A DNA stretch of 64,000 nucleotides, taken from assembly GCA_951406725.2 (NCBI GenBank), contig OX597818.1, positions 18,290,001 to 18,354,000 on the forward strand. The letters are read 5' to 3'. Below, piece after piece: positions 7,291 to 63,786 of the stretch. How positions within the stretch are numbered: the first letter of the stretch is position 1; each line of letters opens with the position of its first letter. This DNA comes from Octopus vulgaris (taxonomy: Eukaryota). Under the pieces are notes generated by a model, which saw nothing but the letters and a program-made list of their open reading frames with translations, did not search any database and was not told the DNA's origin. Position numbers and translations under genes: made by a program.

Positions 7291-7358
7291 ACCTCGTGTG
7301 TACCGTTGGAGATTTTTTTCCCTCTGTCTTCCCTTCTCTGGATCTTTTCTTCTCCTAT

Positions 7359-7393
7359 GTTTCCGACGAAGAGCTCCGCTCGAAACGTTAAAC
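7359..7393 (+). ncRNA. Minimal hammerhead ribozyme (U4C variant) in a short unit flanked by (TA)n
   Basis: GTTT-CCGACGA-A-GAGC(TCC)GCTC-GAAA-CG-TT-AAAC; unit spans about 7290-7483 and is related to 60420-60560 and 63535-63690. Confidence 0.65.
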
Positions 7394-7479
7394 CCTTCTT
7401 CTTTCCTGAGCGTCCAATAATACTATAACTGTTCCACGTCCTCGCGTTGTTGTGTTTTTTTGTGCTTTCTTGTTTGGAT

Positions 7480-8568: not shown

Positions 8569-9000
8569 TATATAGGATCAACTATAAATTTTAAACAACG
8601 ATGTGCTGCGCATCTCAATTCTTTCAGATATGAGAAACACAGTAAATGCACAACACTCGCCAGTCACGCACATCATCTCAACAATAGAAATATTCCCTAT
8701 ATCTTGTCATGGTCCATAATAGATTCAGGGCTTCCAAACCAAGGTCAACTCTCAGCCTGTAAGTTGTGCCTAAAAGAGGGATTCCACATATTAAAACACA
8801 ACTATTTCAATACTATTAAATAAATACAACGAGGCCCAACGTGCATGCAACCAGCGTTTTTTCCATACCTTCAAATTTTACCATATATCTAAATGCAACC
8901 TAAATAATCACACAGTACATATCCCGAACACCACTTAGCTAATCCCCAACAACCTTATTTGACTTTCCATTAAATTTTTAATTCTCCAATCTTATTTTAA
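8569..9000 (+). mobile_element. Penelope-like element 3' part (GIY-YIG endonuclease)
   Basis: Frame starting at 8569, absent from the ORF track, reads YIGSTINFKQRCAAHLNSFRYEKHSKCTTLASHAHHL...WSII...CKLCLKEGFHIL. Confidence 0.8.
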
Positions 9001-48017: not shown

Positions 48018-48366
48018 TAACCATAACCTTATACCTAGCCCTAACCCTAATCCTGCCTCTAAATCCTAAATTTAAAACCCTGATCTTGACGTTAAGGCTT
48101 ATTCCTAACCATAACCCTAACCGTAAAGCCTAAACTAACCCTAAATCCTACCTCTAAACCCTAACCTATCCTTAAATGCTAACTTAACCCTAAACCTAAA
48201 ACCTAATCCTAAAGCCGAACCCTAATCCTAAATTTAATTCTTATCCTAACTCCCAAATCCTAATCCTTAATCCTTAACCCTAACCTTAAATCATAACCGA
48301 AATCTGATCCTAGACCTAAGCCTAAATTCTAACTTAACCCTAACATGAAACACTGATCTTACCCTA
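48018..48366. repeat. Degenerate (CCCTAA)n telomere-like tract
   Basis: Repeated CCCTAA, CCTAAA, CCTAAT and TTAACC hexamers. Confidence 0.8.
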
Positions 48367-49876: not shown

Positions 49877-50904
49877 GTACACACACTCGTATATACACAC
49901 ATATCATACTTAACACAGACTGCTAATTTGAACTAATACTGCTTCTGTCGAACACATACACACATGTACACACATGCACACACACGCGCATATATATATA
50001 TAAATGATAGGTAAGAATATTTTAAACAGAGACGTATTGTAGATTCAGACAATGAGTGCATTAATCTAATATCACAGATAAATAGAAGGAGAATCCGATT
50101 AGTCTTTCGTATTAGTTTATCCTGGATAGATAGATAAAAGTCCGTGGATGTCATACATGAAGCTCACAAAGAAGAGAATGCAGAACGCGGAAAATCTTTT
50201 ACGGTTATTTCTAGGATATGGTGTCCAATGAGTACAGTAATGTGCATTGTGTTGTATATATACATGAAATAAATTGGTATTGGCGAATGAAAAATTCCAA
50301 TTTCCCACCTGAACATAAATATCACTCGATATATAATTCTACTATAAAACTATCCTATTCTACTACACTTACCATAGAATCTATTATACGACATGACCGC
50401 ATTCAAAAGATGTAAACTCAGCTTACATAATGTTAACTGTAACAGGGTAATAGAGTTGCTTTTCTGTTAGACTTAACCGTAACAGGGTAGTAGAATTACT
50501 ATTCGGTAGGGCTTTACCAGCCATACTGACAGACATATGAATGCGTTAAACAGAGGCGTATTGGAGATTCACACAATGAGTACATTAATCCAATATCACA
50601 GACGAATAGAAGGAGGATCCGATTAGTCTTTCGTCTTAGTTTATCCTGGATAGATAGATAATAGTCCGTGGATGTCATACATGAAGCTCACAAAGAAGAG
50701 AATGCAGAATGCAGAAAATGTTTTACGGTTGTTTCTAGGGTATAATAGATCCTATAGTGGGTGTAGTAGAATAGGAGAGTTTTATAGTAGAATTATATAT
50801 CGAGTGATATTTATGTTCATGTGGGAAGTTGGAATTTTTCATTCGCCAATACCAATTTATTTCATTTATATTTACAACACAATGCACATTATTGTACTCA
50901 TATG

Positions 50905-58922: not shown

Positions 58923-58990
<68 letters not shown>

Positions 58991-59992
58991 CACGTACTCA
59001 TGCGTACGTGTATATGTACGAATGAGGGTAAGCGTGTATACATGTATGTGGGTATATGTAAATATACGTACACATGCAAGGTATATATACCTGCATATGC
59101 AGGGGCGATGATACATACAGATGAACGTATAAGTGAGCGTGTATGAGTGTATATACATGCGAGTAAGGATTGTATATGTAACTTATCTAATATATACATG
59201 TATATACATCTTCACATATTTTCTCATATTACTAAGCACTGAACTGCTAAGCATATAAATTCCTTAATTCTTAATATCTCTGCCCCCTCAATTAGACTCT
59301 ACTACTACACATTTGTCATTCCTTTACCTCTTAACTCCCACCCCATTTCTCTATCTTTTACACTATAATACCTTTCTCTCTCTTTCACCCTTCATCTCCC
59401 CCACTCCTACTTTCAAATTATCTCCACTGACCACTGACTCATCTATATCTCCATTTTTCTTTTTGTTTTTTCTTTATTCGATTTGTCCCTCTCTTCAGGG
59501 TTTTTATTTTTTATTATTTTGTTATTTTTATTAATCTCCTCTCTCCTTTCTCTTTCATTTTTCTTTCTCTTCTCTTTTTTACTCTTCCTTTTTTTCTCTT
59601 TCTTTCATTCCTCTCTTCCTGTTTTCAATTTGACCTTACTAATACACTCCCTATTTTTAGGTCACTTTAAATACAAACCTTTGACTCTGCAACACTATGT
59701 ATAAATTCTCTACTTGGAATGACCAAGTTTAAAAATATGCTGGATCTCACACATAAGGGAATCTTACATTGCTTATAAACTTTATATTTGGAAAGACTCA
59801 TTTTAAACTTTGTTGGACTTTTGGACTTTACTCACAGGATATTGGAATATTGCATACATACCATTATACCTACAAAATGGATTTACAACTTCAATACCCA
59901 CACATATCTTCCATCTATTTTCTTTCTTCCACCTCACTCTCTATTTTGTATCACATCTAAACTGATTATGACTTAACTTTCCTCTCACATCG

Positions 59993-60044
59993 TGTCCGAT
60001 GAAGGGATATTATTAATAAATATCTTAGAAACAGCTGTAAGACA
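59993..60044 (+). ncRNA. Hammerhead motif (degenerate 5' core)
   Basis: TGTC-CGATGA-A-GGGATATT...AATATCTT-A-GAAA-CAGCTG-TA-AGACA, at the end of a CT-rich Penelope-type 3' UTR. Confidence 0.6.
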
Positions 60045-60101
60045 TTCTATCTATAAATGCTCTAATATCTATACAACCTTGGTTTTTTTTATCTTATTAC
60101 G

Positions 60102-60152
<51 letters not shown>

Positions 60153-60245
60153 TGTTGCCGCATTACGTCGTACGCGAATGAGAGGATTTGCATCCCCAAC
60201 CAAGAATTTTTGATGTAATACATGTCCTTGAAGAAGTAGTTGTGC

Positions 60246-60323
60246 GCGGCTGAAGAAGGCCACAGACGCACATTATGCATTGTTATAAATCCGTCTAATA
60301 AAGGCCCGAAACATATGTACCGC
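60246..60323 (+). ncRNA. Type-I hammerhead ribozyme, canonical core
   Basis: GCGG-CTGAAGA-AGGCC...GGCCC-GAAA-CATATG-TA-CCGC; predicted GUA cleavage after 60319. Confidence 0.8.
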
Positions 60324-60512
60324 TGAATCCTTGGCATCATGTTTTTATTTTGATTAATTTATATATATATATTAATATATATATATATATATATATAGAT
60401 ATAGATAGATAGATAGATAGGGAGAATTCACAAAAAAACCAACAAAGGACGAAGACAGGTGGTGTAGACAACAAATAGATGTATTAGTATAACGCTCGGA
60501 AAGCGAAAAGGT

Positions 60513-60548
60513 CTTTAAGGTTTCATGCCTATGCTCTTCCACAGAAAG
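60513..60548 (-). ncRNA. Decayed minimal hammerhead motif
   Basis: CTTT-CTGTGGA-A-GAGC(ATAG)GCAT-GAAA-CC-TT-AAAG; same family as 63619-63654. Confidence 0.4.
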
Positions 60549-60560
60549 AAACACACACAA

Positions 60561-60655
<95 letters not shown>

Positions 60656-60748
60656 ATTTATTATCTAAATCTGATTTTTATAGAACTATCCCGAATGTTT
60701 CATGAGTGTAGCCTCACCCCCTTAGATGTTTTGAGAACTCAGATGTTT

Positions 60749-60837
60749 TTTCGGCTGAAGAGTACGGGCCACGTGTATTTGCTGCAATATTTGCAGCCTT
60801 AATAAAGGTGTATTCGTACGAAACAATTGTACCGAAA
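60749..60837 (+). ncRNA. Type-I hammerhead ribozyme, canonical core, branched stem II
   Basis: TTTCGG-CTGAAGA-GTACG...CGTAC-GAAA-CAATTG-TA-CCGAAA; predicted GUA cleavage after 60831. Confidence 0.87.
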
Positions 60838-61483
60838 TATTGATCCATTTTTGTTGCTTTTTTCTTGCTTATAATCACCCCGCATTATCTTATGGTTAAT
60901 ACCATATAGATTTCTGGTGCATCTAAGTTAAGTACCTCATTCATGTCAATTCAACAGAACTCACTTGAATCTTAATTACTTTTACTGTATATATATATAT
61001 ATATACATATATACACACACACATAAATAATCAGAAAATGGAAGAAAACTAAAAACCGTTGGACTTAGACTTGCCTCATTGTGAACCACAGGTGTGATTC
61101 TCGGTAATAATTTCTGTGAATCAGTTTTCTTAAGCACCCTACGGTAATTGTTTATATTGAGTTTGCTTCGCTAGCATTGGTACCGCCCTTTAATAATCAT
61201 GCTAAAATTTTCCTTGTATACACTTTCTTGATAACTTCTTTTTTTAAACATCCTGCCCTCCCCTTTAAATTGCATCCACCCATTAATAGTAGTAGTATTC
61301 TCTAGACCACTCCTAGCTCACTCTTTTACATACGGACCTCGTAACCCCTAGATGGTAAATTATATGCTTTTAACATATTGGTCTTCTAAACTTTTTGTCT
61401 AGGCCATGTTTTCTTTCCTTTTTCTTCTTCCCTTTGTTTATATTGTTTGCTCTTGGTTTTTACTCCGTGCTTTAATTCGAATG

Positions 61484-61563
61484 CCCTATGAAGATGGAGA
61501 ACTTTATTCTCGCATTTATTTATAGACAGCATTTTGGCAACTGATCGGAAACGGCCGTAAGAT
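61484..61563 (+). ncRNA. Degenerate hammerhead motif
   Basis: ATGAAGA...GAAA-CGGCCG-TA, following a CT-rich 3' UTR-like tract. Confidence 0.45.
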
Positions 61564-61911
61564 ATGTTACGTCACATGTTTGTTATGTCATGCTTTGCAT
61601 TAATAAATAAGCTATAAATGTGGTCCAATCGATGTGTTTGTTAATCAGTGGTTTTCTCCATTTTCTAATTATTTGCATTGGTTCCTGATAAAGTCTTGTT
61701 TATCCTGTTGTTACCTGCATTCGACGTGTATGGTGTGCCTGCACACCATTGCCCGGGGATAATACAGGTAACGGTTACCGATAGTATATACAGATATTTT
61801 ATTACTTACTCAGTTACTATAACCGATAACTCTTTGCGCCTCCACTAGATATGTATATATGTATATATATATATACGCATACGTAAATACATGCATTCAT
61901 ACATATATGGA

Positions 61912-62248: not shown

Positions 62249-62647
62249 TAGGCGTAGGAGTGGCTGTGTGGTAAGTAGCTTGTTTACTAACCACATGATT
62301 CCGGGTTCAGTCCCACTGCGTGACACCTTGGGCAAGTGTCTTCTACTATAGCCTCGGGCCGACCAAAGCCTTGTGAGTGGATTTGGTATACTGAAACTGA
62401 AAAGAAGCCCGTCGTATATATGTATATATATATATATGCGTGTGTGTGTTTGTGTGTCTGTGTTTGTCCTCCTAGCATTGCTTGACAACCGATGCTGGTG
62501 TGTTTATGTCCCCGTTACTTAGCGGTTCGGCAAAAGAGACCGATAGAATAAGTACTGGGCTTACAAAAGAATAAGTCCCGGGGTCGAATTGCTCGATTAA
62601 AGGCGGTGCTCTAGCATGGCTGCAGTCAAATGACTGAAACAAGTAAA

Positions 62648-62650
<3 letters not shown>
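62249..62650 (+). mobile_element. CORE-type SINE, full length
   Basis: Near-identical to 5969-6406; inserted in (TA)n. Confidence 0.88.
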
Positions 62651-63536: not shown

Positions 63537-63618
63537 GAAATTTACAGAAAGACAAAAAGTCGAAGAAGGTGTATAAACAACAAGCGGGTGTATTAGTTTG
63601 ACGCCCCAGAATGTGAAT

Positions 63619-63654
63619 CTTTTATGTTTCGAGCCTACGCTCTTCAACAGAAAG
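63619..63654 (-). ncRNA. Minimal hammerhead variant
   Basis: CTTT-CTGTTGA-A-GAGC(GTAG)GCTC-GAAA-CA-TA-AAAG. Confidence 0.55.
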
Positions 63655-63786
63655 GAACACAGAGAAATAAAAACAGAGAGAGAAGGGGACAGAATAAAAT
63701 AATTTTTGGAGTTAAGGAAAAATTTGTAGGTGTAGACGATTTTTAATTCATAAATTCATAATCCAGTTTGGTACAGATCCAATATA

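Follow-up and report, generated by a model that had tools for sequence, protein, structure and literature searches.

A probable stack of five truncated, hammerhead-derived Penelope-like element ends between TA tracts in Octopus vulgaris

Within 1.6 kb of Octopus vulgaris DNA, five sequences resembling hammerhead ribozymes lie between (TA)n tracts. How did they come to be so close together, and is there anything special about the place? The original prediction saw here a hotspot where non-autonomous, ribozyme-bearing retroelements from several families had repeatedly inserted into TA microsatellites. We studied the 64,000-nt stretch that contains the cluster (the window, G000:C5:18290001-18354000), and searched the genome, 2.8 Gb in 227 contigs, for related sequences. 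We hold with high confidence that five protein-coding families of Penelope-like elements (PLEs) have each left a 5'-truncated 3' end in the stretch at 58.9-61.9 kb, and that these ends were likely stacked there by successive insertions into (TA)n.

In a listing of the window's repeats, five hammerhead-derived units are found at about the places where the motifs had been called, each with (TA)n-rich tracts as borders (Table 1). The window as a whole is rich in microsatellites, and ARAGORN finds no tRNA in it. At the nucleotide level the five units share no similarity (0 blastn hits at E<=0.01). As protein, however, four of the five families are related: those of H1, H2, H4 and H5 share 34-49% identity among themselves and have no blastp match to H3. 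The description of the units as mutually unrelated and bounded by (TA)n is therefore right for the borders and for the DNA, but not for the encoded proteins.

Table 1. Units, tracts and ribozyme motifs of the cluster, in window positions; PLE types are assigned by sequence motifs.
Feature	Position	Strand	Description
Unit 1	58973..60105	+	5'-truncated 3' end (3' UTR and pseudo-LTR) of Hydra-type PLE family H1
Hammerhead H1	59992..60043	+	CCGAUGA core (U4C, family-wide), palindromic helix III, stem I broken
Spacer, units 1/2	60105..60150	.	(AT)23 tract
Unit 2	60151..60361	+	210-bp 3' end of young Hydra-type PLE family H2, tail-less form
Hammerhead H2	60246..60323	+	Intact CUGAAGA/GAAA/GUA core, 4-bp stem I, long loop II, palindromic helix III; predicted cut site 60319/60320
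Tract, units 2/3	60353..60419	.	(TA)n/(GATA)n, common to the 3' ends of units 2 and 3
Unit 3	60420..60555	-	136-bp 3' end of very abundant PLE family H3, Neptune/Nematis-type Cys linker
Hammerhead H3	60513..60548	-	Minimal; family core CUGU-N-GA (A6U), window copy CUGUGGA
Spacer, units 3/4	60561..60651	.	(AT)46 tract
Unit 4	60652..60990	+	339-bp 3' end of Hydra-type PLE family H4
Hammerhead H4	60749..60837	+	Intact CUGAAGA/GAAA/GUA core, 6-bp stem I, 7-bp stem II base, long loop II, palindromic helix III; predicted cut site 60831/60832
Unit 5	61050..61835	+	Old 3' end of Hydra-type PLE family H5
Hammerhead H5 remnant	61455..61561	+	Core deleted; GAAA and palindromic helix III remain

The state of each window copy was judged from an alignment of 30 copies per family, that is the window copy and the 29 best others. 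A canonical type I core together with stems I-III is present in H2 and H4 only; the window copies of H1, H3 and H5 lack it. The five motifs thus correspond to five real units, but only those at 60246 and 60749 are intact; both have the CUGAAGA/GAAA/GUA core with stems I and II, although in H2 the basal pair of stem II is an A-C mismatch. In H1 a G-G mismatch within the 4-bp stem I results from a change that is present in 2 of the 30 copies, while the C at core position 4 is found in 29 of them. Substitutions in the window copy of H3 break both stem II and helix III. The window copy of H5 has lost its CUGAUGA core, exact in 15 of 30 family members, to an 11-nt deletion near 61461 that is unique among the 30 copies. 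The word at 61485 that had been taken for this core (motif placed at 61484) is part of an inner hairpin in loop II. A subgroup of H5 (L095, L097, L098 and L100) has a different helix II and GUAA in place of the GAAA core strand.

Folding recovers the hammerhead stems of H2 and H4, and places the dimer 10-12 kcal/mol below two monomers. Each family has a different perfect palindrome in helix III, and in heterodimers of neighbouring ribozymes 5-7 of the 8 palindrome positions pair, with the mismatches in the centre. The stems differ among the five families yet still pair; within families there is little or no covariation (two-sided changes in 0 of 28 pairs among nine H5 copies). In loop II of H2 and H4 an AAUAAA word (60297-60302 and 60801-60806) is located just 5' of the 3' strand of helix II; it is missing from the long loops II of two other families.

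All five units belong to dispersed families. Genome-wide, a 16-mer of H1 has 5,989 exact matches (5 in the reversed control), a 21-mer of H2 1,818, a family 22-mer of H3 17,870 and a 23-mer of H4 247, the last three with none in the reversed control; H3 must have at least 17,870 copies. For H5 we count 985 candidate copies. Unit 1 is 80-87% identical to longer copies over ~1.1 kb, its best other copy reaching 93%. Identity is 97-100% over 40 scored copies of unit 2, 88-93% for other copies of unit 3, 92-98% for those of unit 4 and 77-86% for the best other copies of unit 5. The copies of a family have a common 3' end, and their length on the 5' side varies continuously.

In all five families the longer copies carry reverse transcriptase (RT) and GIY-YIG endonuclease coding sequence upstream, although most copies that we read are broken. 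A GIY-YIG domain is colinear with H1 in 6 of 29 other loci, with RT remains in L152. For H2, both enzymes are present in all five long copies fetched (L217-L221, chosen from inverted pairs), and L217 has the order pLTR-ORF-pLTR with an inverted 5' arm and ~4.7 kb from pLTR to pLTR. Colinear thumb or GIY-YIG sequence precedes H3 in 4 of 29 other loci, with an RT core in L235. The endonuclease is upstream of H4 in L223, L224 and L225 and inverted in L226, and RT is found in L223 and L224. For H5, L227 has remains of RT and endonuclease upstream, and in 7 of 20 loci unit-5 sequence comes after endonuclease DNA in the same orientation. Further, the structures by which PLEs are recognized, i.e. pseudo-LTRs, partial tandems and an inverted 5'-truncated arm, are seen in L217, L152 and the inverted pairs. 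Copy families and coding parents together agree with the original prediction that these are Penelope-type hammerheads from several families.

It should be noted that the enzymes are called from motifs, mutual similarity and homolog annotation. Pfam gives a single sub-threshold GIY-YIG match among the five family ORF fragments scanned, and no RT match in them. The H2 protein has 632 homologs, many with PF26215 and one named GIY-YIG endonuclease. A PLE ORF near the H2 copy L153 was considered as H2's own and dropped: it is of another type and lies beyond other inserted sequence, and the ORF of H2 is the one seen in L217-L221. Asparagine-rich low-complexity stretches occur in ORF linkers of H4 (L224:4493-6580) and H1 (L152:3497-4198); such stretches are reported for rotifer Penelope ORFs (PMC3846280). 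L151 (G000:C5:101219000-101228900) contains a direct duplication of 5.6 kb in which one H1 end and two H3 ends recur, with no ORF between.

By their diagnostic motifs, H1, H2, H4 and H5 probably belong to the Hydra clade of PLEs. The likeness to that clade, as described by Craig et al. (2021, PMC8557442), comprises RT followed by GIY-YIG, DKT, a CxCX5C linker and CxxC with CxH, as well as (TA)n insertion and, close to the 3' end, a type I hammerhead whose helix II is frequently mismatched at its base. In the tables of the same paper, 26 of 27 Hydra families have a (TA)n preference; hammerheads are listed as well, octopus Hydra-1_Obim being among the families. In our families the CxCX5C linker is complete in H1, H2 and H4, while in the one H5 copy read its third position is a stop. 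DKT replaces DKG in H2 (L217, L220). No CCHH motif is found, and CxxC and CxH can be seen by eye around the end of the endonuclease in H1, H2 and H5; in H4 the CxxC is present and the frame stops before CxH. H2 departs from the clade in two respects: it reads RWA where the Hydra motif is RWK, and its repeat unit of ~4.7 kb exceeds the <3 kb that is given as a general tendency (PMC8557442). The hammerheads of H1, H2, H4 and H5 differ in sequence from all Hydra rows in File S2 of that paper; compared with these rows, all four have perfect 8-nt palindromes, H2, H4 and H5 have long structured loops II, and H1 has U4C.

H3 has a CX2-5CxxC linker ahead of its GIY-YIG domain (translation of L131/L235), a form given for Neptune and Nematis (PMC8557442), and by this linker the family is probably of Neptune/Nematis type. 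Its ribozyme fits the minimal hammerhead of PLE pseudo-LTRs (Cervera and de la Pena 2014, PMC4209133), with an extra nucleotide before helix II and a G10.1-C11.1 pair. The two also share the CG palindrome, the short helix I and the occurrence mostly as single dispersed motifs from truncated PLEs, and pairs on opposite strands are a further likeness. However, H3 has a family-wide U at core position 6, whereas the variant described there is U3-A8.

Could the units instead be non-autonomous ribozyme retroelements, either retrozymes or SINE-like cassettes, that are carried by PLE enzymes? Most copies are indeed short and without coding sequence: the top 30 H2 copies are all <=923 bp and H3 copies are mostly 130-260 bp. 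In addition, animal retrozymes have been proposed to stem from PLE pseudo-LTRs (bioRxiv 10.64898/2026.07.22.740005), and metazoan non-LTR retrozymes (Cervera and de la Pena 2020, PMC7229834) have type I hammerheads with a short palindromic helix III as well. But retrozymes are 150-450-bp head-to-tail tandems without coding sequence, whereas the five units are single truncated ends of coding elements. No such tandem exists at the locus, and a second hammerhead on the same strand within 150-1200 nt is found in only 2 of 150 loci. The copies lack a fixed 5' end, and every family continues into RT and endonuclease sequence in its longer copies. Because tandems are rare and the parents are coding, the units fall outside the retrozyme definition (PMC7229834; bioRxiv 10.64898/2026.07.22.740005), and this part of the original prediction is largely refuted. 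We consider a non-autonomous origin improbable for the set; for H3 a truncated subfamily master may exist. The five units are better described as fragments of protein-coding PLEs.

The preference for TA is evident far beyond the locus. Among copies that reach the 3' end, a TA run is found within 25 nt of it in 26/28 (H1), 16/29 (H2), 20/29 (H3), 29/29 (H4) and 19/25 (H5), compared with 9% of random segments in the background, which supports the original prediction of repeated insertion into TA microsatellites. In the remaining 13 H2 copies a 70-nt tail precedes the TA run, and a tail-like extension is visible in H1 junctions also. Inverted head-to-head pairs occur in 27 of 150 loci, with none among the 30 H3 loci. 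In the two-armed H2 loci exactly one arm is tailed in 12 of 12 listed (11 insertions); the listing was made by pattern and misses arms of diverged subfamilies. A tail on one arm is described for PLEs (PMC3846280; PMC11167929).

A likely course of events can be drawn from published PLE work, above all from Poseidon PAc of the green anole (Frangieh et al. 2024, PMC11167929). The endonuclease would nick AT-rich DNA at the target, and reverse transcription would start inside the RNA, about 40 to 270 nt downstream of the hammerhead; two start sites would then yield 3' ends with and without the 70-nt tail. Since the start sites would lie just behind the hammerhead, even short truncated copies keep it and look like a "cassette". 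For PAc, reverse transcription begins at two internal sites downstream of the hammerhead, and the ribozyme required protein for cutting and was dispensable for insertion in vitro (PMC11167929). PAc resembles our elements in its AT-rich targets and in having two alternative 3' ends, which differ by a tail located beyond the hammerhead. It is, however, of another clade, its tail is 30-40 nt against about 70 nt in H2, and its hammerhead overlaps the ORF start, whereas that of H2 ends ~150 nt upstream of the first ATG. The tail on exactly one arm in the Hydra-type family H2 matches the in vitro two-start-site result for a Poseidon element. The hammerheads themselves most likely act in the RNA of the parent element, where they would be active either as dimers of one family, paired through the helix III palindrome, or with the aid of the element's own protein; those at this locus would be passengers. 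The helix III palindrome and the dimer folding of H2 and H4 fit the dimer model of PMC4209133.

The stack itself can tentatively be read in time. Identity to the nearest copy is 83% for unit 5, 93% for units 1 and 3, 98% for unit 4 and 100% for unit 2, and by this measure the likely order of insertion is unit 5, then 1 and 3, then 4, and then 2. Each later insertion likely used a TA run beside an earlier unit, so that the units would be nested. The intact ribozymes, H2 and H4, belong to the youngest units, and three of the five ribozymes are damaged. Contigs from four sequencing runs cover the family sequences, with no piece spanning the stretch or bridging its TA tracts, and no allele with an empty site was observed. 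The cluster is ordinary retroelement debris, mostly decayed, explained by known PLE biology and derived from new families of known clades. In itself it has little weight, as a compact record of successive PLE insertions.

Still, five insertions in 1.6 kb are many. To compare, we used a background of 60 evenly spread 10-kb stretches (600 kb) and a library of eleven hammerhead profiles, which is incomplete and in part seeded from that background. Profile hits number 7 in the 64-kb window, of which five fall within the cluster, and 48 in the background (reversed control 0); the ~10-kb stretches on either side of the cluster have 0 and 1. With inverted pairs collapsed there are 41 background insertions, which together with the incomplete library are the basis for an extrapolation to about 190,000 genome-wide. 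Placed uniformly, these would form about 1,000 groups of three within 1.6 kb, 38 of four and 1 of five. As a single such cluster is expected under uniform placement, the explanation needs the local enrichment that we measured: at 142 loci (150 family copies less 5 from the window and 3 duplicate arms), 18 hammerheads of other families lie within 600 nt behind a 3' end, while 5.8 are expected (Poisson P=4e-5). Three other-family neighbours within 1.5 kb are found at 1 of the 142. This estimate is conservative, because some profiles were seeded from the background. Insertions are thus measurably enriched behind earlier PLE ends, about threefold and in general, and to call the locus a hotspot is an overstatement. 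With such an enrichment tens of similar clusters are plausible in the genome; this one would be an extreme outcome of a process that acts generally, of the sort that a scan of the genome is bound to single out.

A stronger claim would be that insertion is specially favoured at this locus, or that the locus has been co-opted, read-through RNA being cut at H2 and H4 to give a 512-nt chimeric fragment that could circularise. The two intact hammerheads do lie on the same strand 512 nt apart, the density in the cluster is rare if placement is uniform, and each monomer can form a 2-bp helix III closed by a tetraloop, as in axolotl, where such monomers are weakly active (PMC7229834). However, the other three ribozymes have decayed and the intact two are simply the youngest, the palindromes of H2 and H4 pair at only 6 of 8 positions, and density is ordinary across the window and low in the stretches next to the cluster. 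Taken together this makes a special role very improbable.

That the motifs are mere chance matches in AT-rich DNA can for practical purposes be set aside, even though some detection results would by themselves allow it. The strict descriptor, the first one used, missed four of the five motifs, and its one match in the window (H4) is not significant against a mean of 0.33 per shuffled window. The Rfam models detect none of the motifs: no hammerhead is among the 150 matches listed for the window, a list filled by microsatellite-driven miRNA matches, and none is found in unit 2 at E<=10. The fifth core word as first called was, as seen above, indeed not a core. Against this, a relaxed descriptor, which requires a palindromic helix III and was written after the motifs had been seen, gives 2 matches in 59901-61700 (H2 and H4) and 0 in all 300 shuffles of that region, and 19 in the 600-kb background with 0 in all five shuffles of it. 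A motif density above that of shuffled sequence is therefore obtained with the relaxed descriptor but not with the strict one. The diverging yet pairing stems, with a perfect palindrome proper to each family, also speak against chance, as does the position of the motif, which is that of published PLE hammerheads. For H1-H4 the genome-wide exact-word counts and the shuffle tests refute chance.

The most notable side result is the fixed A6U core with a free position 7 in H3, given the size of this family. The unbiased background has 18 H3-type hits; of their 17 readable cores, 16 have U at position 6, and in otherwise perfect cores position 7 is C in 4, A in 4, U in 3 and G in 2. A fixed U6 next to a free position suggests selection in the parent lineages. 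Tentatively, and with less than even confidence, we propose that the natural cores of H3 (A6U) and H1 (U4C) are both functional: they would belong to ribozymes under selection, slow or assisted by protein, which would have spread to tens of thousands of copies and would escape standard CUGANGA searches. Published cases are U4C in a viroid and A6C in a phage, and the activity of both is low (PMC3088659). We found no A6U hammerhead in the literature searched; Lunse et al., on PLE hammerhead variants, may already describe A6U or U4C. If both cores cleave, the hammerhead core has a wider natural tolerance than known. More generally, the genome would contain ~200,000 hammerhead-bearing PLE ends by our extrapolation, many of which, with long loops II or altered cores, are missed by Rfam.

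Further hammerheads were observed outside the cluster. A minimal one of a sixth family, with a CCGACGA (U4C) core and intact stems, is located at 7338-7424 (+) of the window and also occurs in the background (L167). Another H3-type end, with core CUGUUGA and a decayed helix III, adjoins (CA)n(TA)n at 63587-63670 (-). Three more families with canonical cores, two with long loops II and often in inverted pairs, were seen at L158:27-157, L179:201-300 and L198:5729-5866.

Other repeats of the window include remains of a Hydra-type endonuclease at 8572-8929 (+), an inverted pair of RT-thumb fragments at 50278-50851 (both strands), and a degenerate CCTAAC/TAACCC-like hexamer array at 48104-48298 that resembles an interstitial telomeric-type repeat. 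At 62250-62650 there is a very high-copy SINE-like repeat with TA tracts on its flanks and about 50-80 hits in the 600-kb background; this repeat near 62400 we take to be octopus-type.
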